A program made the translations under genes and the position numbers. Shown here piece by piece: positions 1 to 63,717 of a DNA stretch of 64,000 bases. The stretch is from the IMG/VR virus record IMGVR_UViG_3300017971_007885, positions 1-64,000 of that record; one strand, written 5' to 3'. The DNA is from a virus. The notes beneath the pieces were generated by a model. That model had not been told where the DNA came from. It worked only from the letters and a program-made list of their open reading frames with translations, and ran no database searches. The stretch's first letter is position 1, and the number at the start of each line of letters is the position of its first letter.

Positions 1-237
1 CAGTTGTCGGGCGGTGAACGGGTGATCGCTGCCCTTGCGTGCCGGTTGGCCATAGCCAAGTACCGGGCCGATCTTGGCATGATGGTTTTGGATGAACCCA
101 CGATCCACTTGGATCCAAACAGTAAGCAGGGACTAGTAGAAGTTGTAGCGGCGTTGGGGTTGGGTCAGATTATCATTGTCTCACACGATGATGCCTTTAC
201 AACGGCGGCCACGAACGTGATAGAGGTAGGGCCATGA
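1..237 (+). CDS. SbcC/Rad50-like ABC ATPase, C-terminal fragment (5' truncated by window edge)
   Basis: LSGGE signature, Walker B LDEPT and H-loop VSHD motifs. Confidence 0.85.
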   Translation, partial: QLSGGERVIAALACRLAIAKYRADLGMMVLDEPTIHLDPNSKQGLVEVVAALGLGQIIIVSHDDAFTTAATNVIEVGP

Positions 238-953
238 GCGAACTAATGGAGTGGAAGCGTTGGGAAGTCCAGGGACGTGGTTTTGGCCCTAGACAGGTGA
301 TCGAAGCGCCAAGCAAGGGCGTGGCCATTGCTTATTACGAGTGCATGCATGCAATAGATTCTATCGATGATGTGGTTGAGTGTGTGCCCACAGATAGGCC
401 GCTTTATGGTTCCAAAGAAGACGTAAATCAAACTTTGGGCGGGGTCAATGCTTTGAAGGTCCGGGAACTCGATGCCCGCCACAATGCCCTTCTTGGGCTC
501 CAGAGGCGTTATGCTATTGCCTACAAGATAGCTCATGCTCTAGATCACAGCTTCAGCCATGGGCCGTATAAAGTGCTTTGGAAGGCGTTAGAAGTGGAAC
601 CGGACGAAAAACATGCGTTGCTTTGTGAGATTTATCCGGAAGGGCCAACGATTATCAAGCACTATTGGAATGGGAAGCGGTGGGTTATGGCGGGAACTTT
701 GTCCATTGTGGCCAAAGACGAAGGCGATCCACTCGGGCCGGTGCGCTATGGTTTCCCTGGAGTGTTTGAGTTGGCAGGTATCCCGGCGTTGCCTTTTATG
801 TGTCCACACGATCAGATTGTAGACAATGGGGGCAAGGGCCGGACGGTATACGTGCATCGGTGTGCTCAGTGCGGGAAGCTTTTTGCCAGAAGTATGATGG
901 CTCTTGTACCGGCGAAGTGTGGCCGGTGCTCTGAAAGGCGGATCACGTTATGA
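234..953 (+). CDS. hypothetical protein with C-terminal zinc-ribbon
   Basis: ATGA-coupled ORF; CAQC...CGRC. Confidence 0.6.
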   Translation: MSELMEWKRWEVQGRGFGPRQVIEAPSKGVAIAYYECMHAIDSIDDVVECVPTDRPLYGSKEDVNQTLGGVNALKVRELDARHNALLGLQRRYAIAYKIAHALDHSFSHGPYKVLWKALEVEPDEKHALLCEIYPEGPTIIKHYWNGKRWVMAGTLSIVAKDEGDPLGPVRYGFPGVFELAGIPALPFMCPHDQIVDNGGKGRTVYVHRCAQCGKLFARSMMALVPAKCGRCSERRITL

Positions 954-1892: not shown

Positions 1893-2643
1893 GCTAGACA
1901 TATTATCAAACTGGGATGCAACCGCAACCAGGGCCAACGGGCTGGAACTATGTCAACGGTCCAGCACCTTGGTGACAGCGGCGGAACGAAGCGAAGATCA
2001 AACATTTCTTGTCTTTGCGTGGGCGTGCTATTCGTTTTATGAGACAAAAATACCCGGCACTGGGGGCAAGAAAAAATGGCAGTTGACCAGGATCATAGAT
2101 CCCAAAACGGGCGTGATCCCGCCCTATGCCGATAGTTGGGCAGAGTTTTGTACCCGGCACTTGCGCAAAGCTACAACCACGGTAAGCGGGTATAAATCTA
2201 TTTGGGATACGTATGTGGTCAAGCTGGAGATCGACGTAACAAGATTATCATTGGCCGGCAAAAGCAAGCTACTCGTGGCCCAGAAATTGATCAAAGACAT
2301 GTATCCGGGCGTGAACAAAGAGCTTATGGATAAGCTTCTTGATCCTGAAGTCTCACTAAAGGAACTGCAAGACTTGGTGCACAAATTGCGGCGCTTGATG
2401 GATGGCAAGGACGATCCGGAAGAAGAGGAAGAGCCCAAGGGTGCCTTCCAGGGGGATCAGCGTTACGACAAGGATATGGGGATCATTTACTGGACCGGAC
2501 ACTTTATATACAAAGATCGCAAGGTGCCCTTGAATGAGTTGACCTTTGATGTACTCGGGCCGGATGTGGTGGGAAAGGGTGTGCCTGAAGATCTTGTGAT
2601 CCCGCTTATGGATGCTATAGCCGAAGCGTTGGGGGGATCATGA
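1855..2643 (+). CDS. hypothetical protein
   Basis: 262-aa ORF coupled to next gene. Confidence 0.65.
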   Translation: MDEPEKSLMLTSELDILSNWDATATRANGLELCQRSSTLVTAAERSEDQTFLVFAWACYSFYETKIPGTGGKKKWQLTRIIDPKTGVIPPYADSWAEFCTRHLRKATTTVSGYKSIWDTYVVKLEIDVTRLSLAGKSKLLVAQKLIKDMYPGVNKELMDKLLDPEVSLKELQDLVHKLRRLMDGKDDPEEEEEPKGAFQGDQRYDKDMGIIYWTGHFIYKDRKVPLNELTFDVLGPDVVGKGVPEDLVIPLMDAIAEALGGS

Positions 2644-3515
2644 AGACAACGATCGGATGGACTGACCATAGTTTGAATCCGGGAATCTTTGGGTGCTCCC
2701 CTAAAGGGCCGGAGTGCTTGCACTGCTATGCCGCCAAGATGGCACATAGACAGGTTGCCATGGGCAATTATCCACAAGGGATCACCGAGAGAACGGCGGA
2801 AGGGGTCAAGTGGACCGGGAAAGTGATCTTGGGATGCCATGCTTACGTGGTGGATGCTTTTGCCAAGTTGCCCAAACAGAAGCGGGGGCGGGTGTTTGTA
2901 ACCAGTATGGCCGATCTTTTCCATTGGCAGGTCAACAGCACGTTTATCCTGAACGTGTACAAAGAGATGGCCGCCAGGCCACACTTGACTTTCATGGTGC
3001 TCACCAAGAGGCCAGATCATTTACTCGAATTTTGGCAAGCCCTGAGAGTATGGGACGGTGGCAAGTATTCCGAGTTGCCCAACGTGTACTATGGTATAAC
3101 CGGTGGCACCCAAGGTACCTTTACCGAACGGTGGGCGCTCTTGCGCCAGGTGGAAGCGCCCCGGTATTTTGTGAGCCTGGAGCCGTTATTATCAAGCGTG
3201 GTACTGCCTTCCGACTTGCTCAATCTCGGGGACCGGGTACAAGTGATCTGGGGCGGTGAACAGGACGCCAGGGCCAGAGTGATGAAGCCGGTGGATGCCA
3301 GGGCGATCCGGGATCAACTTGAGGGAACGGGGATCAAGCGTTACTTCAAGCAATGGGGAACGTTCTTGCCCGCCAGCCAGATGATCCCCGGCGTGCATAC
3401 GAGCTTTACCGACTTGGCACCAGGCGGCGATAACACTTTTATCAAAGTAACTAAGGCCGGGCAAAGCGATCTTCTTGATGGGGTGACCTATCATGAGCAT
3501 TTGGACCTTGCGTAA
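2640..3515 (+). CDS. DUF5131 / phage Gp37-Gp68 family protein
   Basis: TTIGWTD..NP..GCSPKGPECLHCYA, SMADLFH, LTKRP, SLEPLL, GGE, FKQWG motifs. Confidence 0.9.
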   Translation: MKTTIGWTDHSLNPGIFGCSPKGPECLHCYAAKMAHRQVAMGNYPQGITERTAEGVKWTGKVILGCHAYVVDAFAKLPKQKRGRVFVTSMADLFHWQVNSTFILNVYKEMAARPHLTFMVLTKRPDHLLEFWQALRVWDGGKYSELPNVYYGITGGTQGTFTERWALLRQVEAPRYFVSLEPLLSSVVLPSDLLNLGDRVQVIWGGEQDARARVMKPVDARAIRDQLEGTGIKRYFKQWGTFLPASQMIPGVHTSFTDLAPGGDNTFIKVTKAGQSDLLDGVTYHEHLDLA

Positions 3516-3787: not shown

Positions 3788-4283
3788 TCCGCCTATGGCT
3801 GAAGGGCCGTTTATCTATCGTTTTGAGATCGTTGGCCAACCGCCCCGGAAGAGCAATAACCGGGTGATCCGGTGGGTGTATCGGAGCAAGAGCGATCCAA
3901 AGCGCAAAACCCATGGGCCAATGAGGCCGATCGTTGCCAAGTCGGATGAAGCCATAGCGTGGGTCAATGAGGCTATAGAGCAGGTGCCGGAAGACTTCAA
4001 GCTTATGCTTGGGAGCCTGGAAGAGCCCTTGGGAATCACGTTCTTTATCACCTATCGGAATGAAAGGCCGGATCTGTCGGCTGAATTGATATGTGATATG
4101 CTCCAAGATGCTGGAATGCTCAAAGATGACCGGTATCTTAGGGAAAAACATCTATACTGGTACAAGAACAAAGAACGGCAAGGGGTCAAGATTCTATTAT
4201 TTTCAAGCCTGGACGATCCGATCTTGATACAGGTCCGGGATCTCTTCCTTGATTGTCTGGAAGATAGAAATGGGAGCATGTAA
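3777..4283 (+). CDS. RusA-like Holliday junction resolvase
   Basis: PPRKSN, RPDLS..ICDMLQ..G...DDR pattern. Confidence 0.7.
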   Translation: MKANPPMAEGPFIYRFEIVGQPPRKSNNRVIRWVYRSKSDPKRKTHGPMRPIVAKSDEAIAWVNEAIEQVPEDFKLMLGSLEEPLGITFFITYRNERPDLSAELICDMLQDAGMLKDDRYLREKHLYWYKNKERQGVKILLFSSLDDPILIQVRDLFLDCLEDRNGSM

Positions 4284-4284
4284 G

Positions 4285-5292
4285 ATGGAAATAACACTTG
4301 TTGGAATTGATTTTGGTCGTGGGGGAACCAAGGCCGTGGTGTCTCGGGATGTGCGCACATGCTTCCCTTCAGTGGTGGCCAGGGACGTGGAACGGCGCTA
4401 TGGAGATCTCTTGACGCCCCTGGATGCTAATGGGTGTGTGCACGTTCAGATTATCAATGAATTTGGGACACGCCAGATCGAACGCCTTGTGGGCAAAACG
4501 GCTATAGACCAAAACCCACTTGCCAGGGCGGAACTTGCCCAACAGCGTGATCCGGATGATGTGATCGCTCTTGTGGCAGAAGCGTTTTACAAGCTTGGAG
4601 TTGTGGGGCCGGCCAAATTGGTCGTGGGCGCTCCGATCGATTATTACAAGCCGATCCGGGACAATCGCACCTATCACGATTTGTTGATCGGTAACTGGAC
4701 GATCAACGGCCATGAAGTACAGGTGTTGGATGTAGTTGTGTTGCCTGAAGCCGTGGGCACGTTTTATTCTTTGGCCCTGGACTTGGACGGCAATCCCAAA
4801 AACCTGGACCTGCTTAGAGGCGATCATGCAGTAGTAGACGTGGGCATGTTTACCACGGATGTGGTATGGTTTAGAGATTCACGATTCATAGAGCCAAGGT
4901 CGTTTTCTCGCCAGTTTGGCGTACATGCTATCTTGACGGCACTCAAGGCGCATATGCTCAACGAGCACGGCCAGGATGTGAGTTATTTCCGGCTAGATGG
5001 GCCGCTCCGGGATGGCAAAGCCGGACTTGGAGAAAACACGATCGATTTTGGCCCAGTGATCAACCAGGCGGCGGAAGTGTTGGCAGAATCGATCATATCC
5101 GAACTGCGATCGGCGTGGCGTGATGTGATGGGGTTGCGATCCGTGCACATTTGCGGCGGTGGCTCATATTACACATGGCAGTATTTTCAAGATGAGTACG
5201 GGGATATTGCCAGGCCGGTGCAAGATGCTGAATGGTCAAATGCCATGGGATTCCGGGCTTTTGCACCGTACAAATTCAGGAGGGCTGCATGA
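4285..5292 (+). CDS. ParM/StbA-family actin-like ATPase
   Basis: GIDFGRGGTK, FPSVV, LPEAVG, VVDVGMFTTD, ICGGGS, NAMGF actin-fold motifs. Confidence 0.85.
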   Translation: MEITLVGIDFGRGGTKAVVSRDVRTCFPSVVARDVERRYGDLLTPLDANGCVHVQIINEFGTRQIERLVGKTAIDQNPLARAELAQQRDPDDVIALVAEAFYKLGVVGPAKLVVGAPIDYYKPIRDNRTYHDLLIGNWTINGHEVQVLDVVVLPEAVGTFYSLALDLDGNPKNLDLLRGDHAVVDVGMFTTDVVWFRDSRFIEPRSFSRQFGVHAILTALKAHMLNEHGQDVSYFRLDGPLRDGKAGLGENTIDFGPVINQAAEVLAESIISELRSAWRDVMGLRSVHICGGGSYYTWQYFQDEYGDIARPVQDAEWSNAMGFRAFAPYKFRRAA

Positions 5293-5696: not shown

Positions 5697-5716
5697 TTAG
5701 AAGGGAATTGGGAAAA

Positions 5717-6586
5717 ATGAAGTTGATCGCGTTTGACTTGGAGATCGCAAAACCCATGGTAGATGGGGTGGAATGGTCGGAGCAAAGGCCATTGGGGATA
5801 TCTTGTGCCGCTACCTTAACCAGTGAAGGCCAGATGCGACATTGGCACAACGGCCAGAACTTGACGATAGGCGGCAATTTCGCCTTTGGTAACAAGATGA
5901 ATCCGGGCCAGGTGCATCAATTGGTGGCCTATTTGCAGGACTTTATCAATCGGGGCTATTACGTGGTGACCTGGAACGGGCTTGGTTTTGACTTTGACGT
6001 GTTGGCGGAAGAGTGCAAAGATCGAACGTGGGCCATGCAGGTCGGCAAAATGGCCATGGGTGCACATATCGATCCGGGCTTCCAGATGGTTTGTCAAAAG
6101 GGATATATGATCGGGCTGGAAAAAGCGGCCAAGGGGCTCCGGGTGGAAGGCAAAACCAAGGGCATGCATGGGGCGTTGGCTCCCCTTTTGTGGTCCGGTG
6201 ACCTATCGACAGCAAGCCCAGAGCAGTTGGAAGATATCGCTGGATTTTTTGAGGGCGGCCCGCCCGATCGCTTTGCCGGAAGCAGGTCCGCACAAGCCCT
6301 ATGCCTGGAATATGTGGGTCAGGATGTGCAAGCCACGATGAACGTGTACACAGCGTTGGTCGAGCAAAAAGAAGTGTGGTGGATAACTGCCAAAGGTACG
6401 ATATGCCGGAAGCCGTGGAAGCCGATTATCAAGACCGATCCATATGACCGGCTTTTGACCGTGGAAGAGGCGCTACGGATCGATGAGCCCAATACCTCAT
6501 GGATGTCGGATCCCCGCCCACGGGGTGAATATTTTGGGTGGGTGAAAACGTTACAACAGATGCCCGAGCGTGTGATCACGCTCTAG
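5717..6586 (+). CDS. DEDD 3'-5' exonuclease (RNase_H_2 / PolB-exo-like)
   Basis: AFDLE, TWNGLGFDF, YVGQDV motifs. Confidence 0.8.
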   Translation: MKLIAFDLEIAKPMVDGVEWSEQRPLGISCAATLTSEGQMRHWHNGQNLTIGGNFAFGNKMNPGQVHQLVAYLQDFINRGYYVVTWNGLGFDFDVLAEECKDRTWAMQVGKMAMGAHIDPGFQMVCQKGYMIGLEKAAKGLRVEGKTKGMHGALAPLLWSGDLSTASPEQLEDIAGFFEGGPPDRFAGSRSAQALCLEYVGQDVQATMNVYTALVEQKEVWWITAKGTICRKPWKPIIKTDPYDRLLTVEEALRIDEPNTSWMSDPRPRGEYFGWVKTLQQMPERVITL

Positions 6587-6750: not shown

Positions 6751-6791
6751 GCACGAGCCGGATTATCATTCAGTGAAGGGAGTATGTATCT

Positions 6792-7187: not shown

Positions 7188-7489
7188 CCGGCTCCGGCAA
7201 TTGGGGCCATCAGGGCCGCCCCGGACAACGGGGCGGCTCCATCCCACGGACTGAAGTGCACCCTATCTTCCGGTATGCTCAAGAACGATTATCAAAGCCG
7301 CCGCCGTGGCCGGACGTGATCGTGCTCAAGTCGGGGCTAAAAGTGCCGGTATGCCGGTGTGATGAAGTGTCAGAAGGCGTGATCTTGGTGGAAAATTGGC
7401 GGCTCATGGGTGCAATGTGGGATTTTAAGATGCTTATGCATGAACTTTGTGGGCCGTGTCCAGAAGAAAGGCAATGGACGAAATGTTAG
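7184..7489 (+). CDS. small protein beginning with the SGNWGH tag (no leader)
   Basis: MTGSGNWGHQGRPGQRGGSIP. Confidence 0.6.
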   Translation: MTGSGNWGHQGRPGQRGGSIPRTEVHPIFRYAQERLSKPPPWPDVIVLKSGLKVPVCRCDEVSEGVILVENWRLMGAMWDFKMLMHELCGPCPEERQWTKC

Positions 7490-7953
7490 AGTTTAGGAGT
7501 GATCGGGGGAAAGAGTGGGCCGCCAGGGCTCATCCAAGCCTAGTTGTTGCCGTGAATCGCCAAGTGGGCGAATTTTGGCGGCGTAATGATTTGAGGCTGG
7601 CACGTGAGGACTGCTCTTCTGCGATGTCTTCTCAAGAAGCCGAAAGCGAGATTCCGGAAGGAGCCATGCCTATCTCGGACATATCCAGGATTTTAGGGAT
7701 GGATCGTGCCACTTTGGCCAGGTGGGTCCGGGCGGGGGATCTTCCGTTGGCCGGCCGGTTTATGGTGAAGCGTAGTAGCCGGATTCATCATCAAGAGGTT
7801 TTTACGTGGCCGGGGTTGGTTGTGCAAGAGATTATCACTCGGAATGCAACCAGGACCGGGCGGACCAAAGAAATCATATGGATCGGTGAAGCGGCGTTGG
7901 CGGATAAGGGATATACTCCATGGCTAGAAGCGGCGGATCTATGTCTGGATTAG
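7474..7953 (+). CDS. HTH DNA-binding protein (excisionase/MerR-like)
   Basis: ISDISRILGMDRATLARWVRAGDLP. Confidence 0.65.
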   Translation: MDEMLEFRSDRGKEWAARAHPSLVVAVNRQVGEFWRRNDLRLAREDCSSAMSSQEAESEIPEGAMPISDISRILGMDRATLARWVRAGDLPLAGRFMVKRSSRIHHQEVFTWPGLVVQEIITRNATRTGRTKEIIWIGEAALADKGYTPWLEAADLCLD

Positions 7954-8531
7954 GTGTGCACGGGTTGTCTCTAAGCGGGAACTGGGAAACTCCGCCAAAG
8001 ATGGTAACGGATCTTGCCCCACTTTTCCCGTGGGATCTTGACGTATGCTCTTTGTGGCCCACGATAGCACCCAAGTTTTACACACCTTGGGACGATGGAT
8101 TATCATTGCCCTGGAAAGGTCTGTGCTTCATGAATCCGCCCTATGGCCGGAAGCGATTGATCGATCGGTGGATGGCCAAAGCTAGGGCGGAAGGGTGCAA
8201 ACTGGGCACCACGGTGGTATGCTTGATTCCGGCGCGTACTAGCACCACATGGTGGCAAGATAACGTGCCTTATGCCAGTATGGTAACGTTTATCCGGGGG
8301 CGGCTCCATTTTGTGCTTCGGGAACACTTTGCCCGTAAAGAAAACGGGGTTTTTGTGCGGGTGCCCACCAAGCAGGGGCCGGCGGGCTTTCCAAGCGCCT
8401 TTGTCGTGTTCGGTGATCTGGAGCGAGAGCAGATTATCAAGCTTGACAGCTATGGCTATACAGATATGTCAATTCTTGATGTTGGCGGCATGTGTGATTG
8501 GCTTTCTTGGGTAAAAAGAGAGTGGAAATGA
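7941..8531 (+). CDS. phage DNA N6-adenine methyltransferase (T1 Dam-like family)
   Basis: WETP, DLDVC, DDGL..PW, FMNPPY, LIPART.T.WW, FIRGRL.F. Confidence 0.85.
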   Translation: MSGLGVHGLSLSGNWETPPKMVTDLAPLFPWDLDVCSLWPTIAPKFYTPWDDGLSLPWKGLCFMNPPYGRKRLIDRWMAKARAEGCKLGTTVVCLIPARTSTTWWQDNVPYASMVTFIRGRLHFVLREHFARKENGVFVRVPTKQGPAGFPSAFVVFGDLEREQIIKLDSYGYTDMSILDVGGMCDWLSWVKREWK

Positions 8532-10423
8532 ACAATTGGCAGGTGCTTCCGGGGCACGTTTTGGAGTGGTTGCGAAAGTTGGCGGCGGGTAGTGTCAATC
8601 TGATTTTCACGAGTCCGCCATATTGGGCCTTGAGGGATTACGGGCTTCCGCCTTCAGTGTGGGGCGGCGATCCGAGTTGTAACCACGTATGGGGCGATCT
8701 TGTGCCGGGGGCGCATCCAAACCAGGTTGCCCAAACCAATACCCGACATTCAGACGCGGCGGCCAATGGCCAAATGGCCAAACGGGGCCAATTCTGTCAA
8801 AAGTGCGGGGCATGGTTGGGTTGTCTGGGGCTGGAGCCCGATCTAGACATGTTTATCAATCATTTGGTTGAGATCTTCAGGGAAGCACGGCGGGTGCTAC
8901 ATCCAAGCGGTACGCTCTGGGTGAACTTGGGGGATTCTTATGTAAGCAATCCTATAAGTGCCGGTGGTAAAAATGAGATCCGAACCGACGATCAAACAGG
9001 TGGCTTTCAAAGGGGGCATTCTAGGCGTGTGACCAGTCGTGGCAATGGGTTGAAGCCCAAAGACTTGATCGGAGTGCCATGGCGGTTGGCGTTGGCGCTC
9101 CAGGCGGATGGTTGGTGGCTAAGATCAGACATAGTGTGGTGCAAAGGTCTGGACCGGTCAGAGCAGGAGCTAGAGGCACAAGCGGAAGTGGAAGCGGCGC
9201 TTGCCATGGTGCGCCAGGCGGCCGGCGGAAGTCTCTTTGGATTATCAAAGCCACTAGATCAGGCTCTGAAACGGGCGGAAAAGGCTGTGGAACGGCTCTT
9301 TATGGTTGGGGCGACAATGCCCGAGAGTGTTAAGGATCGGGTCACCGCAAGCCATGAATACCTCTTTGTGTTTGCCAAGAGCAAAAAGTATCATTGGGAT
9401 AGGCATGCGATCCGGGTGTTGCCAAAACAGTGTAGTGTAGAACGGCGCTTGTATGGGCGGAGTGGCGATCACAAGCATACGGAAGGGGCTCCGGGCCAAA
9501 TGCCACATTCCTTTTTGATGGAAACAGAGATTGGTCAGGGACTGGATAACATGAATTCAGGGGGCCGCAATGCAAGAACGGTGTGGCGTGTGCAAGCCGA
9601 AGGTCACAAGCCCTTCATTTTGCCCGATGGTGAAGAGGTTGCCCACTTTGCCAGTTTCCCGAGAGCGTTGGCGGCCAGGGGGATCCAGGCCGGTACCTCA
9701 GAGCATGGGTGTTGTGCCACGTGCGGCGCTCCATTCAAACGGATTATCAAACCATCCGCCGCTTATGCCGAACTGCTAGGCCAGGACTGGGCAGATTATG
9801 AGCAGGACGCCAAAGAGGGCCGGGGTCATTCTGTAAGCAATCAACGAACCCAAAAGCGTGGGCCGGCGGCCACGGCGGAATACGAAACAACAGGTTGGGA
9901 ACCTACATGTAGGTGCCATGGCGCTCCAGAACCGGGGTTGGTGCCGTGCAAAAAGTGCAAGGGGACCGGGCAAAACCGGAAAGGCAAGAAGCGCCACGAT
10001 GATCATATGCCGGAAGAAGGCCAAAGGGAAAGTAAAAGCCGAGGCCATATCGGGAACTTGGGCAAGAATTCCATGGAGATCTTGGACGATCCATGCCCCA
10101 AGTGCAACGGTGCCGGACAGGTCCAGGGATGGGTATGGAACGAAGAGATTATCAAGGCGTGGCCGCTGAAAAGGCCAGTTGTGCTTGACACCTTTGCGGG
10201 AACAGGGCAAACGTTGCTTGCCGGGCTGGATCTCGGATGTGACGTGATCGGCATTGACTTGTCAGAAAGGTACGCCAGATTATCAAATGCCAGGTGTGAA
10301 GCGTGGCCGGAAGCGTTGCCCGAAAAAGGCAATGCCCGAGAAGAGAACGAAGCAGAAGCAATCCAACTAGAACTTGAACTAATGCGGGACGCTTCAGATT
10401 TTGAAGAGTTGGGGCTTCACTAA
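8528..10423 (+). CDS. beta-class N4-C/N6-A DNA methyltransferase with insertions
   Basis: TSPPYW, LWVNLGDSY, KDLIGVPW, MPESVKDR, HFASFP, VLDTFAGTGQT. Confidence 0.9.
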   Translation: MNNWQVLPGHVLEWLRKLAAGSVNLIFTSPPYWALRDYGLPPSVWGGDPSCNHVWGDLVPGAHPNQVAQTNTRHSDAAANGQMAKRGQFCQKCGAWLGCLGLEPDLDMFINHLVEIFREARRVLHPSGTLWVNLGDSYVSNPISAGGKNEIRTDDQTGGFQRGHSRRVTSRGNGLKPKDLIGVPWRLALALQADGWWLRSDIVWCKGLDRSEQELEAQAEVEAALAMVRQAAGGSLFGLSKPLDQALKRAEKAVERLFMVGATMPESVKDRVTASHEYLFVFAKSKKYHWDRHAIRVLPKQCSVERRLYGRSGDHKHTEGAPGQMPHSFLMETEIGQGLDNMNSGGRNARTVWRVQAEGHKPFILPDGEEVAHFASFPRALAARGIQAGTSEHGCCATCGAPFKRIIKPSAAYAELLGQDWADYEQDAKEGRGHSVSNQRTQKRGPAATAEYETTGWEPTCRCHGAPEPGLVPCKKCKGTGQNRKGKKRHDDHMPEEGQRESKSRGHIGNLGKNSMEILDDPCPKCNGAGQVQGWVWNEEIIKAWPLKRPVVLDTFAGTGQTLLAGLDLGCDVIGIDLSERYARLSNARCEAWPEALPEKGNAREENEAEAIQLELELMRDASDFEELGLH

Positions 10424-19092: not shown

Positions 19093-19165
19093 AGGCTCCA
19101 ACTCGGGATTATCATTCAATCCGATCTGATAAGCGAGCAAGATGCTCTAGAAACGATCGCCAACC

Positions 19166-55395: not shown

Positions 55396-56594
55396 ATCCA
55401 AGTCCGTTTTATGCGCCGGGCTTTATCGCTCCAGGTATCGCACCGGTGCCGATCTCACTAACTGAATACATCCAAACCACAGGGATCAACGAATATCTAT
55501 TCTATGGCGTGAAACGGGGCGCTTACGTGCCGGAAAGTACCCAATTTTACGACTTTTGGGATCGCCAGATGATTTATCAATACCTGCGGGCGGCGGAGCG
55601 CCAGATCGAGAACAAGATCCGGGTCCACCTTACCCCTACTTGGGCGGATGAAGACGGCGAAGAAGTGATCGTGGCAGATATGCGCGGCTATGTCTCAACA
55701 TCGGGCCGCTCTGGGTACTATGCATGGCACGATTTTGCAGGTGCGTGGCCCTGGAGTGGGAGCGGATCGTACTATTACAACCCAACAAGCTTGGACTGGA
55801 AGGCATTTATCCAGGCCGGGCAAAGAAAAACTTCTGTATACGCCGCCCATGCCACGGTTTCATATGGCGGTGACTGGGCAAAAGTGACCGTTCCAAGTGG
55901 CGGGGTGGGCTCCAAGGACGAAATACGGGTATTTTATGCCGATGGCACCCATACCTATGGGCCAGAGCCGTCCAAGATCAAAGTGGGACCGAACAACATT
56001 ATCATTACATGGCCAAAGGTCCGGATGGTTAAGCCAGAACTGAGCACCAGGCACAACTTGCCGGTGGACTTTGACGATAACAACAACTTTGTGGAAACGA
56101 TCACAGTGGCCCGAGAGTACAACGATCCAAGTGTTCAAGCCGTGGTCAGAACACGCCGGAACTGCAATACAACCGCATGCCAGGAGAGCACGGAAACAGC
56201 TTGTATCTTTCCTTCAGAACGGGAACTTGGTTATGTGGCCATCTATCCGGCTTGCTATGGCGGTGGACAGTGGCGGCGGCGGACGGCATTCCAGGGAATC
56301 CCAGATGTGGCGTTTCTGCATTATCAATCAGGGCTGAAGACCTTGCCGCCAGGGTGGGATCAAGCGATCATCCGCCTTGCTCACACGATTATGCCAGAAG
56401 CACCATGTCCGACAGGTCACCAACCCCAAGATCGTTTCTGGAGCAGGGACCGGAACATGAGCCATTCACAAACCCGAGAGCGGATCAATTGTCCGTGGGG
56501 GCTAATGGATGGGGCGTGGTACTCCTGGATGTTTTTCGAGGAACAAGAGCAGAATTATAGCAAAGGGGGTGGTTTACTTGCCTTCAGAGGATAA
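55389..56594 (+). CDS. head-tail connector/adaptor-like protein
   Basis: YLRAAERQIENKI and Y.SG...P...QAIIRLA connector-type motifs; position. Confidence 0.55.
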   Translation: MVNPSPFYAPGFIAPGIAPVPISLTEYIQTTGINEYLFYGVKRGAYVPESTQFYDFWDRQMIYQYLRAAERQIENKIRVHLTPTWADEDGEEVIVADMRGYVSTSGRSGYYAWHDFAGAWPWSGSGSYYYNPTSLDWKAFIQAGQRKTSVYAAHATVSYGGDWAKVTVPSGGVGSKDEIRVFYADGTHTYGPEPSKIKVGPNNIIITWPKVRMVKPELSTRHNLPVDFDDNNNFVETITVAREYNDPSVQAVVRTRRNCNTTACQESTETACIFPSERELGYVAIYPACYGGGQWRRRTAFQGIPDVAFLHYQSGLKTLPPGWDQAIIRLAHTIMPEAPCPTGHQPQDRFWSRDRNMSHSQTRERINCPWGLMDGAWYSWMFFEEQEQNYSKGGGLLAFRG

Positions 56595-56910: not shown

Positions 56911-58410
56911 ATGTCAACAACCGTTGATCAAACAACTATCCAAAGGGGGTTTCAAACCCCATTCCTAAAGATCCATCCTTCCATCGATCCATACGAGTAC
57001 ACGGGCGATTGTTCACGGCTTCAAGGCGTAACAAAACCCCTTGGCGATGTGGAACACACGGAATGTATGGATGCAACCCAGGCCACGGGCTTCCGGGAAG
57101 ACTCGGAGATCGTCTCACGGCCAGGATCCACCACGGGCACCATGGTGATGAAGAAGAGTATTGTCAATGCGATCAAGGCTGAACTCTGGGCAGATTGCAG
57201 ATGGAACATTGACATTAGGCTTCAGCTAGAGGGTACCGGCTCCAGGTCCGATCAAATGAACTGGAACGCAATCGATCGGTATATCCGGTCCAAGTACACC
57301 GAGTATGCTACTGACGACGAAACGGTATACACTCGGGACGATCAAGGCGAAGTCTTGATCACGATGCCCTTTAGTGCGCCGCCTTTGTCGTTTTACAACA
57401 TCCGCAAGCTGGATGCCCAATTGATCGATACTGACAAGGCCGGAAACATCACATGTATAACGTGGCTTGCCCATGAAGAGTGCCCCAGTGTCAACGGGCC
57501 GGCCGTGGGGTGCAAGATGGCTGTGGGAACGGCTGACATCGGTGGTAACCCACAGGTAGGATTATCAAGCGACGGTGGCCAAACCTGGACTTGGTTTACC
57601 TTTGATGGCACGAACAACACGCCAACGTGGACCAACCCGATTACTGGAATCAGCGGGATCGATGACTTGATCGTGGTGGTCAGTGCGGCGGAAGGGTCAC
57701 ATGCGTATTCCACAGACGGCGGAACCACGTGGGCGGAAGTCACGCTTGCCGACTATGCCGCCAATGCCCCCCAGGCCGTGGTAGTGCAATCGCCTACAGC
57801 TATATGGATTGCCGGTGCCAACGGGTATATCTGGTTCTCGGATGACGGCGCTGTAACAGCAACCACGGCGGACGGTGGGAACCCCGGTGTGGTCACGTCA
57901 AGCAACCTGCTCCGGATCAAGGCGCTATCCGATCGCTTTATCATTGCCGTGGGTGCATCCAATGCCATCGTAAAATCTGAGAACGGCGGCGAAACCTGGA
58001 GCCTGGTTACAGGGCCGGCGGCTCAAGCGGCGGTGCAAGCCAATTCGATCGCAATGTGGGATCAAAACATTTGGCTTGTGGTCTATGAAGACGGCGAGGC
58101 TTACTGGACCGACGATGCCGGAACAACCTGGACCGAGGATACCCAGATCACAGACAAGGCTTTGACGGCGCTCAACGATGTTGCCGTGCATAAAGCGGAA
58201 CGGTATGTGATGGTGGGTGAAGACGGCGATGGTAACGGGATCATTTTGGACAACATCCACGGTGCCCCCGGCAAGTGGGCAGAAATCGCAGAGCCGTCCG
58301 ATGTGCAGGAGCTTTTCCAGGTGATCACGTGTGATCAAAACCTTTGGGTAGCAACCGGCGAAGTCACCTATGTGGGTGCCGAAGGCGCGATCGTTCGAGC
58401 GGTGGCCTAA
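56911..58410 (+). CDS. probable major tail protein with BNR/Asp-box propeller domain
   Basis: GGAGG RBS; directly upstream of chaperones; repeated S.DGG.TW motifs. Confidence 0.6.
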   Translation: MSTTVDQTTIQRGFQTPFLKIHPSIDPYEYTGDCSRLQGVTKPLGDVEHTECMDATQATGFREDSEIVSRPGSTTGTMVMKKSIVNAIKAELWADCRWNIDIRLQLEGTGSRSDQMNWNAIDRYIRSKYTEYATDDETVYTRDDQGEVLITMPFSAPPLSFYNIRKLDAQLIDTDKAGNITCITWLAHEECPSVNGPAVGCKMAVGTADIGGNPQVGLSSDGGQTWTWFTFDGTNNTPTWTNPITGISGIDDLIVVVSAAEGSHAYSTDGGTTWAEVTLADYAANAPQAVVVQSPTAIWIAGANGYIWFSDDGAVTATTADGGNPGVVTSSNLLRIKALSDRFIIAVGASNAIVKSENGGETWSLVTGPAAQAAVQANSIAMWDQNIWLVVYEDGEAYWTDDAGTTWTEDTQITDKALTALNDVAVHKAERYVMVGEDGDGNGIILDNIHGAPGKWAEIAEPSDVQELFQVITCDQNLWVATGEVTYVGAEGAIVRAVA

Positions 58411-59210: not shown

Positions 59211-59666
59211 ATGAAACGATCGCAATGGTACGGATGGCCAAAAAAGAGGGCGCTTTATAGCCAGGGCGAAGGGCCAGGCGGTGAATGTGTATGCCCAGAG
59301 TGCGGCGCAAAGAAGCCGCATGAAGCAGGGACGCCATGCACAGATGTGCCGTGCCCAAAGTGCGGTACAAAGATGGTCCGGGAAGGGGCGATTATCAACA
59401 AGGCCGCCTATAGCCGGAGCAGGTGCATGATGTGCGACAATCCCCCCCAGATAGATGCCAGGTGGGCGGATGGCCGGGGGCGGGCATGGTTTTGCATCCC
59501 CCACTTCCTAGAGTGGACGCAAAAAGAGCCACGAGAGATCGTACAAGCATGGTTTATCAAAGATGGCCAAGCACCCAAAACTTTGAAGGATCATCCAGGG
59601 GCTAGACTCGGTACAGAGCCGGCCAAGATAGCAAATCGGGCCAGGGAGTTAGCACATGGCGGATAA
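59211..59666 (+). CDS. Cys-rich zinc-ribbon protein
   Basis: GPGGECVCPECG...H..G.PC....CPKCGTKM; CMMC...CIPH. Confidence 0.65.
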   Translation: MKRSQWYGWPKKRALYSQGEGPGGECVCPECGAKKPHEAGTPCTDVPCPKCGTKMVREGAIINKAAYSRSRCMMCDNPPQIDARWADGRGRAWFCIPHFLEWTQKEPREIVQAWFIKDGQAPKTLKDHPGARLGTEPAKIANRARELAHGG

Positions 59667-62600
59667 AATGCGCAAACTTGGGCTAAAAGTGGCGCTTGCC
59701 GGGCTCCAGTCCTACCGATCCGGCATTCAGTCTATCAACAAAGACAACGCCGCAACCAGGCAATCAATGGAAGACGTGGCCCAAGGGAGCCAAAAACTAG
59801 ACTTGGGCATGGCCGCCTTGACCGGCGGAATGCAAGCCCTTGCCGCAAAGGGGATCGAAGTGCTTCTTGGCGGACTGAAGAGGTTGGGCAAAGAGATCTA
59901 TGGCATGGCCTCAGAAGCCGGTGTGGTGGCCGGGCTAAAAGGAGCCTTTGAAGGACTGTCCGCTTCTGTGGGCCTAACCGGTGCAGAAATGCTACAAAAG
60001 TTCAGGGTGGCCACGGGTGGCATGGTGACCATGAAAGATGCTATGATGAGTTTTAACAAGGCCGCCCAGTTGATTAGCACTGATTTTGCCACAATGATCC
60101 CCGATGCTATGGGGCACCTATCCAAGGTGTCTCGGTCAACCGGGGCCAGTCTGGACTATTTGCTTGACTCCTTGGTGATCGGTATTGGCCGCCTATCTCC
60201 TATGATCCTGGACAACTTGAGTATCCAGGTGTCCCTTGCCGAAGCCTCACAACGAGCCGCCGACATGTTTGGCGTGAACACCAAGGCATTATCAAAACAG
60301 CAAAAGCAATTGGGCATGGCCAATATCGTTATGGAAAAGTTGGCCATCAATACGGCGCATATGCCAGGCGTAACCGGCACAACCACGGCACAAATGGCTG
60401 CATTGGGTACAACCTTGAAAGACGTGCGAACAGAGATCGGCCTTCGCTTTTTGCCGGTGTTGAGCGAATGGATGGGCATTGCCAACGCTCTAGCCACTGA
60501 GTTTATGCCAAAACTCATTCCAGCGGCTGAAAAGGTATCTAATGCAGTCATGGGAATGATGACTTGGTTTCAAAAGTTGGTTCCTGTACAGAAAATTGTG
60601 GCCGGTTTATCTGAAGCTTTTGATGCTTTCGTGACCGGGATGCAAACGGCGCTTGCTCCGGCTCTAGAAGTCTGGGGGAACTGGACCGGGATTATCAAAG
60701 CTTACATTGAAAGCATCGTCAATATTTTGACCGGTGGTGGACTGGGGAAGGTGTTTGAAGAACTGCCAGGCAAGATCGAAGCCGCTTTTGCGGTGATCGG
60801 GCCAATAATTGAAGAGGTAACCAAGTACCTGACTTATTTCTTCAGAGTGGCCAGAGATGTTTTTGCAGGAGTTGAAGCCCTTTTGAAGGGGGACACAGAG
60901 CGGGCAACCAAATTTTTTACAAAAGCCTTCAACACAGCCATAGCCACGGTGATCGCCCTATTCAAGCGGCTTGGTGCTCAAGTGATCGAGTGGGGCAAAA
61001 GTCTGATTGCATCCTACAGTAAAGGGATCATTGAAGGGATCAAAGCCTATCTATCCGCCGCTCTTCAATCTGTAGCCAACTTTATCAAATCATTTATGGC
61101 TCCAGGGAGCCCGCCCAAGTTTTTGCCGGATATTGGCACGTGGGGTGCCGGGGCAATGAATGAGTACATCAAGGGCATGGAGCATGCCGATTTTGGTATG
61201 CTGTCTAGTTTTACATCCCAATTCAAAACCGAACTTTCAGGCTTGATCCAGGCCGGTGATTTGGATGCTTCTGCTTTTGCAGATACGTTTTTTGAGCTAC
61301 GTGGCACCGTCATGAAGGTCATGGATGACTTCAAAAAAACCGGCAAGGTTGCAGCGGGGGCATTGGATCCGTTACGCAAAAACTTGGGCAAGACCGGGGA
61401 AGCTTTGGCTGAATTGATCGAGAAACAACTTGCCTTTTCCGCTCTGGATAAGCAGATCGAAGAGCTAGAAAAAGGCTTCAGTGAAGCAATGGATGGAATC
61501 AGCAAAAAGTTCGAGGGCTTGACGGATCAAGAAGAAGCCTTGAATGATGCCTTGATGCCTTTTATCAAAAACCTGGAAAAGCTACGCGCTCAAGAAGTCG
61601 TTGAACTTGACGAATTGAGAGAGATGTTAGACGCCGGAGAAATTGGGCTTGAAGAGTACGAAGATCGGGTCAAGGCTGTAAAAGATCAAACCAGGGAAGC
61701 CGAAAAAGCCTATAATGTGAAGCGAGCAGAGCAGGTAAAATCACGCCAAAATATTCAGGAGCAAAAAGAGGCACTTCAGGACCAGGCCAAAACGCTTCAA
61801 GATGAACGGCGAGAGAAACTAAAAGCTCTTGCTGAAGAAAGAAAAGCTTTGGCTGAAGGGATCACGGCGCTTCAGGACCGGCTTGCGTTCCACCGTGAAA
61901 CGTTGGGCGTGATGAAACAACAAGACCAATTGTTAAAAAAGATGGCTGAAAGGATGCCCAAGGTTGGCGTGGGGGCCGGCCCTAAAGTGGACGGCATGCC
62001 AGCTTTACCAAAGGTTGAAGATTTGCTTGGTGAAGACATGCCCACCGTGCTTGAATCTGTTGACGACTTTAGGAAACGGATGGAAGATCTAGGTAGTCTT
62101 GAGATCGAACCGTTTGATCTCGGGGAACTTTTGCCCGATGTGGAAACAACAAAACGTGAAGTTTCCGCTTGGTTCTCTGCATCTTTGGCCGGCATACAAA
62201 CGGCGGCACAAAATTCGCCTATTGCTCAATGGATCCTGGATGCATTTTTCGTAAAACTCCCTGAAGTAATAAAGGGAATTAGCACGTGGATGGAAAGCAA
62301 TTTTCCTATGGCCTTTTATATGGTACCAAAAATCTTGGAAGAAGTTTTCTCTGGAGATTTTCAAGGTGCCTTGCAATTGGCTATTGATTGGTTCGAGTGG
62401 TTCAAAAGCTATATTGCTATCTGGTGGGCAATGGAGATTGAGCCTAAACTGAAACCATTCAAAGAGTGGTGGGAAAAAACTTGGCCGATCTTGCAAGCGA
62501 TTGCAGTCACGGCATGGAAAGTGATCAGTGATGTTGTCTCGGCGGCGGTGAAAGTGATCGTGGATGATGTTTGGCCAAAACTCCAAGAAGCATGGGATAA

Positions 62601-63717
62601 TTTGAGCGAAGCCCTTGGACTTGGACAGATCACATGGGAAGATACTTGGTATGCGATCAAAACAGCCGTGATGGTGGTCGGGGCCGTTATCGGTGCGGTC
62701 ATTTTGGGAGTGGTGGCCGTGATCGTGGGGCTGGCCAACGCGATCGCTTCCGCTGCACAGACGATCACTAGTGCGATGAGAAACACTAAGGAAGGGTGGA
62801 TCAAAATTTGGGCCGCCATAACAACGTCACTCGAACTTGCCAAAAAGTTCATCTTGGCGATTATCAAAGGTGATTTTGCCCTTGCTTGGGAAACTATGAA
62901 GCAGGGACTCGTAGCAACAAAAATATTCTGGGAAGGTGTTTGGTTGGCCATCAAGGGCGCTTTTGAAGCTTCAATTGGGCTTATTTTGTCGATCATTGGC
63001 GGATTCGTCGAAGGCATAATTGACTTCTTTACTAACCTGTACAAAGACTTGATCGGTGAATCTATCATCACTGATATGCTAACCGATATCTGGACCGCTT
63101 TCACCAAAACGTTCACGGATATTTTGGAGAAGGCGGGGGAATTTGTAACGGGTGTGATTGACTTTTTCAAAGGGCTATTGACTGACCTTGTTGGCGATGA
63201 TGGCACCGTGACCAACATGGCCAAAAAAATCTATGATACGGTTGTCGGCGCTTTTAACGATATCATCAAAACAGCCGGTGAGATGGTGGAAAGCTTCAAG
63301 CAAGTTGGTATAGATATTTTCGCCGGAATTTGGGAAGGTCTAAAAGAAAAGTGGCAGGAAGTCAAAAAGTGGATCTTGGGCCGCTTCAGCAAATTAGGCA
63401 AAGACGTGGAAGACGAAATGGAGATCGAATCTCCAAGCAAGGTGTTCTCCAGAATTGGCGAAAAAATGGCTGAAGGTGTTGAAGTGGGCTTTGGTTTGGA
63501 AGGGCTGGAGAAGAAAGTGTCTATGAGCGTGGCTCCAGCGATCATGATGAGCAAAACCGCCCGACCAATAAGCACATCGAATACAAATAACAACGTTGAC
63601 AGATCGATAGATAGCAGAAACCAAAGCGTAAGCATGCCGGTGACAGTTGTTGATAGCCAGGTGTCGCTTGCTCAATTTAGAGAAACATTCAGACAAATGT
63701 TGACCGAGAGAGGGTAA
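59656..63717 (+). CDS. tape measure protein
   Basis: 1353 aa helical, GRLSPMILDNL, W-spaced repeats, SPSKVF C-terminal motif. Confidence 0.9.
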   Translation: MADKMRKLGLKVALAGLQSYRSGIQSINKDNAATRQSMEDVAQGSQKLDLGMAALTGGMQALAAKGIEVLLGGLKRLGKEIYGMASEAGVVAGLKGAFEGLSASVGLTGAEMLQKFRVATGGMVTMKDAMMSFNKAAQLISTDFATMIPDAMGHLSKVSRSTGASLDYLLDSLVIGIGRLSPMILDNLSIQVSLAEASQRAADMFGVNTKALSKQQKQLGMANIVMEKLAINTAHMPGVTGTTTAQMAALGTTLKDVRTEIGLRFLPVLSEWMGIANALATEFMPKLIPAAEKVSNAVMGMMTWFQKLVPVQKIVAGLSEAFDAFVTGMQTALAPALEVWGNWTGIIKAYIESIVNILTGGGLGKVFEELPGKIEAAFAVIGPIIEEVTKYLTYFFRVARDVFAGVEALLKGDTERATKFFTKAFNTAIATVIALFKRLGAQVIEWGKSLIASYSKGIIEGIKAYLSAALQSVANFIKSFMAPGSPPKFLPDIGTWGAGAMNEYIKGMEHADFGMLSSFTSQFKTELSGLIQAGDLDASAFADTFFELRGTVMKVMDDFKKTGKVAAGALDPLRKNLGKTGEALAELIEKQLAFSALDKQIEELEKGFSEAMDGISKKFEGLTDQEEALNDALMPFIKNLEKLRAQEVVELDELREMLDAGEIGLEEYEDRVKAVKDQTREAEKAYNVKRAEQVKSRQNIQEQKEALQDQAKTLQDERREKLKALAEERKALAEGITALQDRLAFHRETLGVMKQQDQLLKKMAERMPKVGVGAGPKVDGMPALPKVEDLLGEDMPTVLESVDDFRKRMEDLGSLEIEPFDLGELLPDVETTKREVSAWFSASLAGIQTAAQNSPIAQWILDAFFVKLPEVIKGISTWMESNFPMAFYMVPKILEEVFSGDFQGALQLAIDWFEWFKSYIAIWWAMEIEPKLKPFKEWWEKTWPILQAIAVTAWKVISDVVSAAVKVIVDDVWPKLQEAWDNLSEALGLGQITWEDTWYAIKTAVMVVGAVIGAVILGVVAVIVGLANAIASAAQTITSAMRNTKEGWIKIWAAITTSLELAKKFILAIIKGDFALAWETMKQGLVATKIFWEGVWLAIKGAFEASIGLILSIIGGFVEGIIDFFTNLYKDLIGESIITDMLTDIWTAFTKTFTDILEKAGEFVTGVIDFFKGLLTDLVGDDGTVTNMAKKIYDTVVGAFNDIIKTAGEMVESFKQVGIDIFAGIWEGLKEKWQEVKKWILGRFSKLGKDVEDEMEIESPSKVFSRIGEKMAEGVEVGFGLEGLEKKVSMSVAPAIMMSKTARPISTSNTNNNVDRSIDSRNQSVSMPVTVVDSQVSLAQFRETFRQMLTERG

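Follow-up and report, generated by a model that had tools for sequence, protein, structure and literature searches.

A conserved, regularly spaced word on one strand of an uncultivated tailed phage genome

Introduction

The USS and DUS words of Pasteurellaceae and Neisseria are 9–10 nt long, recur about once per kb in all frames and are reportedly distributed more regularly than a random process would give; they are found on either strand, and their carriers are competent bacteria rather than phage. KOPS and SRS, which the gamma domain of FtsK and SpoIIIE reads, are 8-mers of extreme strand polarity. KOPS sites are chromosomal, with one per about 12 kb and a change of orientation at dif; even spacing is not one of their properties. 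In phage T7 the EcoP15I sites all point one way, a pattern of avoidance that involves neither enrichment nor conservation nor spacing.

A few phages are known to have one-strand words, either as nick motifs, whose function has gone unexplained for 50 years, or as accumulated Chi sites. The nick motif of phage tf, TACT/RTGMC, occurs in 14 copies on one strand, concentrated in one half of the genome (PMC3517423), and is enriched and one-stranded in 61 phages that share little nucleotide sequence (PMC11780129). Zinc-ribbon HNH enzymes that phages encode beside their terminase genes are site- and strand-specific nickases with sites of 3–7 bp (PMC3592412). Chi is the commonest octamer of phages LLS and P1, at 1 per 1.9 kb; in LLS one orientation accounts for 20 of 23 sites, and the Chi sites of Pseudomonas aeruginosa MD8 are divided 32:0 (PMC12315714).

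Here we analyse a word, ATTATCA, in the genome of an uncultivated tailed phage (IMG/VR IMGVR_UViG_3300017971_007885; whole contig 100,482 bp). The window is the stretch from position 1 to 64,000 of this contig, and a sequence-only reading of it had drawn attention to the word. That reading did not consider programmed nick sites, and it saw neither the regular spacing nor the density gradient described below.

Results and Discussion

The window contains 64 copies of ATTATCA on the + strand and 0 on the − strand, in agreement with the earlier manual count of just over 60 with no reverse complement; the positions given then are correct apart from the first copy, which had been placed at 168 and starts at 169. 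Across the whole contig the ratio (+:−) is 118:0, against 149:2 for TTATCA, 93:0 for ATTATCAA, which is the most over-represented octamer of the contig, and 172:1 for the degenerate WTTWTCAW. Moreover, the − strand has none of the frequent one-mismatch variants of the word. As a consensus the word reads R-G-[A>T]TT[A>T]TCA[A>T], or R-G-WTTWTCAW, with G at position −1 in 75% of copies and T almost never at −2. At one per ~0.6–0.85 kb, it is the densest and most strictly polar one-strand word among the ~200 viral contigs examined.

All window copies read on the + strand. The leftmost lie at 169–175, 651–657, 990–996, 1151–1157, 1413–1419, 1902–1908, 2244–2250, 3188–3194, 4450–4456, 6425–6431, 6762–6768, 7288–7294, 7831–7837 (the sole window copy not followed by A or T, its next base being C), 8099–8105, 8433–8439, 9241–9247 and 9743–9749. 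They are followed by copies at 10148–10154, 10279–10285, 11349–11355, 11924–11930, 12176–12182, 13139–13145, 13453–13459, 14492–14498, 15811–15817, 15995–16001, 16782–16788, 17353–17359, 17691–17697, 18742–18748, 19108–19114, 19549–19555, 19856–19862, 20458–20464, 20826–20832 and 22223–22229, the final copy left of a motif-poor zone. To the right of that zone the word resumes at 27299–27305, 28101–28107, 29722–29728, 30165–30171, 30944–30950, 31791–31797, 34652–34658, 36567–36573, 36893–36899, 39626–39632, 41457–41463, 41771–41777 (adjoining the ATG of ORF 41778–42278), 42681–42687, 45357–45363, 47920–47926, 48701–48707, 49041–49047, 52001–52007, 53071–53077, 53988–53994, 55998–56004, 56320–56326, 57561–57567, 59391–59397, 60288–60294, 60691–60697 and 62860–62866.

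A further 39 variant copies (TTTATCAA, ATTTTCAA, TTTTTCAA and, rarely, a form ending in CAT) fall within 3438–63170, again all on the + strand. They start at 3438, 4199, 5183, 5398, 5942, 8852, 12629, 25720, 27078, 28684, 29186, 32558, 33043, 33430, 33880, 34370, 37695, 38639, 38837, 39993, 40968, 43422, 44863, 47765, 51051, 51204, 52227, 52736, 53245, 54401, 55210, 55573, 57937, 58467, 59553, 61081, 61561, 62357 and 63163. The variant words are absent from the − strand with the single exception of one TTTTTCAT at 38230.

Dinucleotide shuffles of the window yielded 7.4 ± 2.6 copies of ATTATCA on both strands summed (maximum 14) against the 64 observed, which bears out the earlier claim of an excess over composition. 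A synonymous-codon shuffle, in which every protein and each gene's codon pool were held constant, gave 31.9 ± 3.5 copies (maximum 41) against 118. The excess is thus 3.7-fold (about 4-fold) when codons are accounted for and 26-fold over composition. The sequence-only reading had held that this was no codon or peptide effect and had named a codon-preserving shuffle as its own refutation test; since that shuffle gives 31.9 copies against 118, the enrichment withstands it. The − strand count, which it had also proposed as a check, is 0 for ATTATCA across the contig. The reverse word TGATAA is avoided, with 2 copies against 16.6 expected. As had been stated, the word occurs in all three frames of + strand genes (33/19/35) and between genes (14 copies). 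A proposed tendency to sit just before start codons was not borne out, as the 15 nt upstream of called starts hold 2 copies where 1.8 are expected.

About 85% of the genes are on the + strand, and most copies are therefore transcribed as AUUAUCA, as would suit an RNase site, an RNA-binding-protein site or a translation signal in mRNA. However, minus-strand gene blocks at 75.4–76.8, 78.6–80.3 and 81.1–86.3 kb, whose − strand genes are confirmed by Pfam LPD29 matches, hold 11 sites antisense to their mRNA, all of them on the + strand, and 0 on the − strand. GC skew reverses in these blocks; the orientation of the word does not. The word also favours no reading frame and is not enriched close to start codons. 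Because the minus-strand blocks carry the word only on the + strand, we reject an mRNA-level signal, which has next to no chance of being right; it is refuted unless these blocks are also transcribed rightwards at a high level. We regard R-G-WTTWTCAW, with a probability of roughly 0.9, as a cis-acting DNA signal that selection keeps on one strand of the whole chromosome, and whose reader would be something that sees the genome as polar along the packaging or entry axis rather than the transcription or translation apparatus.

Five related viral contigs (44–90% protein identity) carry the same one-way word, n:0, and n:0 ratios hold for relatives L003–L007 and L157. At ~80% nucleotide identity, 12–13 of 14–16 sites are kept, against 26–35% of random 8-mers (P 1e-4 to 1e-7), with some turnover of sites among the relatives. 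On these comparisons the word is under purifying selection in the relatives. A paired-word scan of viral contigs returned a known relative only. The shuffles, the minus-strand blocks and this selection together uphold the general proposal of the sequence-only reading, that of an oriented signal for a one-directional process; its mRNA option falls, and its Chi-like and KOPS-like options are possible, though each fails a test.

The sites are kept apart. No two neighbours lie closer than 126 bp, and gaps below 300 bp number 26 where 68 are expected. Neighbour distances form two narrow bands, 414 ± 76 and 785 ± 36 bp, with a deep trough in between; the correlation between adjacent gaps is negative (r = −0.42), with sums of ~830 bp, and pair-correlation peaks stand near 400, 800, 1225 and 1600 bp. 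The two bands recur in relatives. Tests of the sites for helical phasing found none. The other one-way words of the contig are Poisson-spaced and at or near their expected numbers. The USS and DUS words likewise lie inside genes in all frames and are reportedly evenly spaced, but on both strands. Neither nicking nor any other model considered here predicts the two-band spacing (~414 and 785 bp) in detail.

Such spacing, with its two bands, negatively correlated gaps and pair-correlation peaks, is readily given only by a physical ruler. An oligomeric DNA-organising protein, acting in condensation, capsid-interior contacts or partition, could hold loops or turns of fixed contour length on a docking lattice. 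Against this, the sites lack helical phasing, a multilayer spool would give a continuum of turn lengths and not two bands, and symmetric binding would not need strict one-strandedness. Tailed phages offer no precedent, and the phage offers no candidate protein; we consider a lattice improbable.

Co-orientation by itself would arise if the word were recognised by a host Type III or Type ISP restriction enzyme, which cuts between head-to-head sites, or were the target of the 641-aa N6/N4 methyltransferase of the phage, the phage simply keeping every copy in one orientation. The same contig has GGGTC 77 times (86 expected) and GACCC 0 times (75 expected), which fits the pattern of Type III or Type ISP evasion, and CAGGTG and GAACTG are divided 65:0 and 41:0. 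The one-way copies of ATTATCA, and these other words, resemble the EcoP15I sites of T7. However, evasion explains a missing orientation and not a 4-fold (codon-aware) to 26-fold (composition) excess, and it leaves site-by-site conservation and regular spacing unexplained, whereas the comparator words are near expected numbers and Poisson-spaced. The 641-aa methyltransferase, moreover, matches small beta-class enzymes in the PDB and not Type III Mod. Restriction or methylation is consequently a very remote explanation of this word.

Density changes along the genome. From 24 kb rightwards the counts of ATTATCA per 10 kb are 6, 7, 7, 7, 12, 15, 12, 23, 16 and 13, an approximately threefold increase from the terminase side to the opposite end. 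The gene for the terminase large subunit (TerL) lies at 32361–33779 on the + strand (phrog_2, E 3e-8; phrog_5653, E 3e-7), and from its position packaging would run left to right on the + strand. The absence of the word from about 22.3 to 27.3 kb, pointed out earlier, is real: between the copies at 22223 and 27299 the zone 22230–27298 holds 0 ATTATCA and two weaker variants (ATTTTCAA at 25720 and 27078). The GC-skew flip near 24 kb lies within this zone, whose flanks carry perfect tandem repeats (22771–22877 and 28123–28223). Taken alone the gap is not unusual (Poisson P = 0.23); relatives L004 and L005 have a gap at the matching place, at the same GC-skew flip. The motif-poor zone may be the neighbourhood of the packaging start or of a genome end.

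Site-specific priming would account for another part of the pattern. Were replication one-way over the whole genome (rolling circle or end-initiated) and Okazaki fragments started by a sequence-specific primase only at the word on the lagging-strand template, strict one-strandedness independent of transcription would follow, as would spacing of a few hundred bases, the loss of close pairs and strong site conservation; the + strand is the lagging-strand template for rightward forks. Known primases read 3–5 nt, however, so that a word of 8–9 nt is longer than their sites. Neither the density gradient nor the motif-poor 5 kb would be expected, and Pfam, PHROGs or NCBIfam matches among the ~75 ORFs scanned include no primase, helicase or DNA polymerase. 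We judge priming at the word to be unlikely.

The phage encodes a translocase of the FtsK/SpoIIIE family (contig 73394–74686; Pfam FtsK_SpoIIIE, E 5.5e-19) within an operon of RHH, FtsK-like and small membrane protein genes, and the word could orient this protein for one-way pumping, in which case its C-terminal domain would prefer GATTATCAA duplexes. The gene product is 69–90% identical in the five relatives, with an invariant C-terminal helical domain; an AF2 model predicts this as a separate 4-helix domain (residues 362–428, pLDDT ~80), and hhalign (99.8% probability, full-length match) places it in the register of the FtsK gamma domain. Like KOPS and SRS, the word is a strongly polar 8-mer whose reverse, TGATAA, is avoided. 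However, the domain has no Pfam gamma-domain match (PF09397) even at E <= 10, the hhalign register shows no conservation of the KOPS-reading residues, and the model has a helix in place of the wing. Seventy-four other viral contigs with FtsK-like genes show no comparable polar word, their median polar 8-mer score being 8.2 against 8.2 and 9.2 in controls. A search of genome contigs for homologues of the translocase found remote ones only. Furthermore, the word has ~20 times the density of KOPS, is evenly spaced and keeps one orientation genome-wide. A KOPS-like role is accordingly as improbable, in our estimation, as a docking lattice.

Chi offers a closer parallel. The word could be the site of a host RecBCD/AddAB-type helicase-nuclease, oriented to halt degradation and start recombination from the last-packaged, first-injected end. 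Here too ATTATCAA is the most over-represented octamer, as Chi is the commonest in the Chi-rich phages LLS, P1 and MD8, at about 1 per 1–2 kb; in MD8 the sites are co-oriented even through minus-strand genes (32:0, all on the top strand), and in these phages they are concentrated opposite the terminase genes and turn over individually (PMC12315714). With TerL at the left, the word on the top strand and density rising 3-fold towards the right end, the present genome would show the same polarity, provided packaging runs as its terminase suggests. However, Chi in MD8 is clustered (CV 1.39, gaps of 6–60 bp) and in P1 lies on both strands with Poisson-like spacing, whereas no gap here is below 126 bp and two bands are seen. 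The phage also owns at least part of an end-processing kit, with an RNase H-fold exonuclease and, where the contig begins, an SbcC/Rad50-like gene. To our knowledge, all characterised Chi sequences are G-rich. The present word is A/T-rich, and known Chi words are defined by the host. We consider a Chi-like function doubtful, if less so than priming.

The reading that we tentatively rank first, at odds that are still against it, is that the sites are programmed single-strand interruptions as in T5, phiKMV-like and tf/LUZ24-like phages. A phage-encoded site- and strand-specific nickase would cut one strand at each word late in infection, and the nicks would act as swivels or hinges for the packaged DNA. 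The nicked strand would be the one that the packaging motor does not grip, which would explain the one-strandedness; a swivel or hinge role would account for close pairs not being kept; and the density gradient would follow if the last-packaged part is the most tightly bent. The nicking itself, the enzyme and the strand cut are all conjectural.

The nick motifs of tf, Rembedalsseter (WACTRTGAC), phiKMV-like phages and T5 are also short asymmetric words of 7–9 nt on one strand only (PMC3517423, PMC11780129). They are likewise enriched over chance, shared by members of a phage family that otherwise have little nucleotide similarity, found inside and outside genes, loaded to one genome half and accompanied by near-cognates on the same strand. 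They differ in the word itself and in the phage lineage, in numbering 9–14 copies per 45 kb against 118–172 per 100 kb here, and in having no regular spacing reported; the density here is 5–8 times that of any described nicked phage (tf, 1 per 3.3 kb). Moreover, nicks have been physically shown in those phages, whereas here they are predicted from sequence.

Two genes could encode the putative nickase. The first candidate, encoded in the late region (40465–41517, + strand; phrog_1271, E 4e-37; HNH_3, YacG-type zinc ribbon), is an HNH endonuclease that contains zinc-ribbon modules. Cos phages that have no nicks commonly carry an HNH endonuclease gene near the terminase genes too, and the gene here therefore argues only weakly for nicking. 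The second candidate is a Mini-A (Topo VI-A/Spo11-like) protein at contig 92.6 kb, in which the catalytic Tyr and the Toprim residues are present; Mini-A-bearing contigs in general have no polar word. In assembled contigs of public runs there were no pile-ups of contig beginnings or ends at the word, and breaks fell at repeats and strain variants.

Conclusions

The word array may represent a new genome-wide ruler, serving a phage-encoded machine that needs one oriented site per ~400 or 785 bp; we put this forward as a possibility, somewhat more guardedly than nicking. If true, phage DNA would carry a layer of cis-information that has not been described before and that is linked to the polarity of packaging or entry. 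The word described here does not depend on the direction of genes, its individual sites are conserved, and it prefers two distances. Should the sites be nicks, their spacing and gradient would be the first quantitative clue to what nicks do, namely to relieve torsion or bending in step with the order of packaging. Otherwise, some reader that measures ~400 to 800 bp as a physical ruler is still to be discovered. In either case, the word is a handy metagenome marker for this uncultivated phage lineage.

Word abundance, strand bias and reading frame

The window contains 64 copies of ATTATCA, all on the + strand, against 7.4 ± 2.6 in a both-strand dinucleotide-shuffle null. This agrees with the sequence-only reading, which had counted more than 60 copies and no reverse complement. 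The window forms the first 64 kb of one 100,482-bp contig, and the claimed enrichment extends over all of it: in the whole contig ATTATCA is found 118:0 (+ strand:- strand), ATTATCAA 93:0 and TTATCA 149:2. Position counts give the consensus R-G-ATTATCA-W. The common one-mismatch variants, ATTATCAT (23 copies), TTTATCAA (19), ATTTTCAA (17) and TTTTTCAA (16), are likewise absent from the - strand, and therefore we adopted WTTWTCAW as a working definition (172:1 in the whole contig). A PWM scan at 8 bits returned 184:3, that is, few extra weaker sites. A literature search on the word matched only primers and unrelated sequences. Resemblance to an IHF site was rejected, as the flanks of the word do not match the IHF consensus. 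Resemblances to a DnaA box, a Fur box or a pC194-type nick site were given no weight.

Genes were taken from our own longest-ORF calls, and synonymous codons were shuffled inside each called gene with the proteins and the per-gene codon pool held constant. The excess survives this codon-preserving shuffle, which yields 31.9 ± 3.5 copies of ATTATCA (maximum 41) where 118 are observed; the null is conservative because the proteins already contain the II(K/N), DYQ and GLS that the word writes. Moreover, the copies fall in the three reading frames 33/19/35 times and further copies are intergenic, as expected from the earlier argument that this is not a codon or peptide effect. The suggestion that copies sit just before start codons did not hold up, with 2 found and 1.8 expected.

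Most genes lie on the + strand, with three blocks of - strand genes at contig 75.4-76.8, 78.6-80.3 and 81.1-86.3 kb; two of their ORFs carry Pfam LPD29 domains and a third matches phrog_2319 (E 7e-86). GC skew is negative within these blocks, while all 11 word sites they contain remain on the + strand. Therefore, GC skew tracks transcription and the word does not. The word is a signal in DNA and not in RNA, and a signal acting at the mRNA level is scarcely credible given these 11 sites.

Conservation and rarity

The same word occurs in five viral contigs with shared proteins 44-90% identical, always on one strand only (n:0) and at similar density, so that the comparison with related phages proposed earlier gave the same result in each. 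These relatives also share the further words that occur in one orientation only here. Alignments at ~80% nucleotide identity show 12-13 out of 14-16 sites retained, compared with 26-35% of random 8-mers in those alignments (P 1e-4 to 1e-7). Of the sites in a relative, 8-28% are not matched by one in this phage, and the differences are substitutions, not insertions. High retention together with some loss thus places each site under purifying selection with slow turnover.

A scan for paired words in viral contigs (GATTATCAA N301-331 GATTATCAA) recovered the array, among at least 118 matches listed, only in the relative L157, whose word count is 14:0. An AT-rich, unrelated viral contig (IMGVR_UViG_3300027969_000084, 12895-16948) has a ~20-nt repeat in 8 same-strand copies across 4 kb. 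The repeat, which happens to include the word in its consensus (...TCGGATGGATTATCAATATAT...), is probably promoter-like in that phage. For rarity, each contig was given the score of its best dispersed polar 8-mer, scaled to 20 kb. Two 20-kb pieces of the phage contig that lie beyond the window obtained 24 and 34, against medians of 8-9 in controls (74 contigs with an FtsK-like gene, 66 with Mini-A and 58 from the pattern scan). Among these controls, scores of 24-34 are reached only by tandem or palindromic repeats.

Gene content

The element is a tailed phage. Its DNA was found in seawater and sediment metagenomes, and megablast of 20 kb against a phage collection gave no match. The contig is incomplete, starting inside an SbcC/Rad50-like gene (1-233, the C-terminal part, with signature and Walker B motifs) and ending 19 nt into a new ORF (100464-100482). 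The FtsK-like protein is also present on a 109,791-bp contig, which implies that ~9 kb are missing here. The window encodes a DUF5131 protein (2640-3515), an actin-like ALP (4249-5292), an RNase H-fold protein (5708-6586), a 641-aa N6/N4 methyltransferase (8498-10423), a PAPS-reductase-like protein (28406-29449), the terminase large subunit (32361-33779), an HNH endonuclease with zinc ribbons (40465-41517) and a tape-measure protein (59656-63717), followed by a second large ORF of 1344 aa without annotation (63722 to contig 67756). The window has no tRNA genes, and we recognised no gene for a polymerase, a primase or a helicase in the contig. The 641-aa enzyme was rejected as a Type III Mod, its PDB sequence matches being small beta-class N4/N6 enzymes only. 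A 597-aa protein (30567-32360) looks, from its GNEPN ... ITETN motifs, like a TIM-barrel glycoside hydrolase that leads into a linker rich in Cys, Pro and Asp; it has no Pfam or PHROG match and is 44-82% conserved in relatives. Within the terminase gene (32510-33725), co-occurring strain variants in all three Logan runs depart from the window sequence at dozens of sites, most of them synonymous-looking.

Two further genes lie outside the window. Mini-A (297 aa, Topo VI-A/Spo11-like; contig ~92.6-93.5 kb, or 12134-13027 of the 20-kb piece L002) matches phrog_6247 (E 2e-99), and its best Foldseek matches are Topo VI-A structures (probability 1.0). It carries 5Y-CAP and Toprim as well as the SWELDAL box, a Mini-A feature described in PMC7671362, has >8000 metagenome homologues at ~50% identity and is matched by no Pfam or NCBIfam model. 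An FtsK/SpoIIIE-family ATPase (contig 73394-74686) stands in an operon with a weak RHH-like protein and two small proteins (contig 73045-75341; 9045-11341 of the 20-kb piece L001). It is 69-90% identical in the five relatives, the next homologues reaching only 33%, and a scan of genome contigs for the family, in search of the host, found only bacterial FtsK homologues at 24-25% identity; a metagenome scan added no new contig. That the word sites load this ATPase is improbable. Its C-terminal helical domain aligns in the FtsK gamma register by hhalign; however, Pfam finds no gamma domain, and FtsK-bearing phage contigs in general are without polar words. Across viral contigs, neither the FtsK-like gene nor Mini-A co-varies with polar words.

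Gradient and motif-poor zone

Starting at 24 kb and moving rightwards around the contig, successive 10-kb bins hold 6, 7, 7, 7, 12, 15, 12, 23, 16 and 13 copies of ATTATCA. The gap noted earlier at about 22.3-27.3 kb is real, coincides with the GC-skew flip and recurs in relatives. With the terminase gene a short way to the right of this gap, packaging would by the usual phage layout start at ~24-30 kb and run rightward. With that polarity, the word would be sparse in the first-packaged DNA and dense in the last-packaged, first-injected DNA. GC skew leaps from -0.1 to +0.35 at ~24.0 kb; ORF translations at 23400-24500 are oddly His/Cys-rich, and this stretch may be non-coding, with a role in control, as an origin or in packaging. 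Tandem repeats, perfect or nearly so, lie at 14562-14667, 21022-21081, 22771-22877 and 28123-28223. Two arrays are 33 bp x 3.2, of unlike units, and the others are 21 bp x 2.9 and 27 bp x 3.7; the motif-poor zone is bracketed by two of the four. Logan contigs from three runs end at these repeats. These aligned contigs, being assembled, gave no informative ends for nicks. A 4237-bp Logan contig spans 22848-27084, and therefore a terminus there is not marked by any break in the assembly.

Spacing of sites

No two sites are closer than 126 bp, and gaps <300 bp number 26 where 68 are expected. Neighbour distances form a short band of 99 gaps between 280 and 600 bp (mean 414, sd 76) and a long band of 25 gaps between 731 and 879 bp (mean 785, sd 36), separated by a trough at 550-700 bp with only 4 gaps (~25 predicted by the exponential tail). 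Adjacent short gaps are anticorrelated (r = -0.42, p = 5e-4), summing to ~830 bp, and a gap of 733-814 bp follows 10 of 21 very short gaps. Pair correlation peaks at ~400, 800, 1225 and 1600 bp, with order lost beyond ~2 kb. There is no helical (10.5-bp) or codon (3-bp) phasing of distances, and neither a weaker copy nor a second motif was found midway in the 785-bp gaps. Both bands recur in relatives, and the control words GCCAGG, GGGTC and CAGGTG of the same genome are Poisson-spaced.

A Chi-like signal has a precedent in phages LLS, P1 and MD8, where Chi is the commonest octamer (PMC12315714). We examined MD8 and half of P1 directly: Chi is 32:0 and clustered in MD8 (CV 1.39) and lies on both strands of the P1 half. 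The word sites here are instead kept apart, which argues against a simple Chi and for a signal whose neighbours interfere or add nothing. We regard a Chi-like role as unlikely, second among the readings to nick sites.

Other one-way words and avoided sites

GCCAGG occurs 163:0 whichever the gene direction, with CCTGGC nowhere (synonymous-shuffle expectation 56 and 24). GGGTC is found 77 times and GACCC 0 (75 expected), CAGGTG 65:0, GAACTG 41:0, GGAGG 18 times against CCTCC 0, and CGAGG 22 times against CCTCG 0. These words keep their orientation irrespective of gene direction, behave alike in relatives and are Poisson-spaced. They read like evasion of Type III / Type ISP enzymes cutting between head-to-head sites, which does not account for the ~3-fold enrichment of GCCAGG. 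The palindromes CCCGGG, GGCGCC, GGGCCC, AGGCCT, CAGCTG, ACGCGT, AGTACT and ATTAAT are absent from the whole contig, where CGCG and TTAA are depleted 4-6-fold. GATC is 3-fold in excess (1121 in the whole contig, where composition predicts 387 and the synonymous shuffle 734), and this GATC-rich phage itself encodes a Dam-family methylase (7920-8531).

Possible functions of the word

The closest published phenomena are phage nick motifs and Chi-rich phages. Each reading was weighed on the density and spacing of the sites, the gradient, the composition of the word and the candidate genes. On these grounds priming sites seem more doubtful than a Chi-like signal, a protein-docking lattice slightly more so again, and co-orientation as the sole explanation very improbable. 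The remaining probability falls to something outside these readings, none of which predicts the two bands in detail.

Our leading reading, to which we tentatively assign a probability of about 0.3, is that the sites may be nick sites. The nick motif of tf (TACT/RTGMC) has 14/14 copies on one strand, mostly in one genome half, and is kept in 61 phages (PMC3517423, PMC11780129); the word is alike in keeping to one strand and in being denser towards one half of the genome. Moreover, zinc-ribbon HNH enzymes adjoining terminase genes are strand-specific nickases (PMC3592412).
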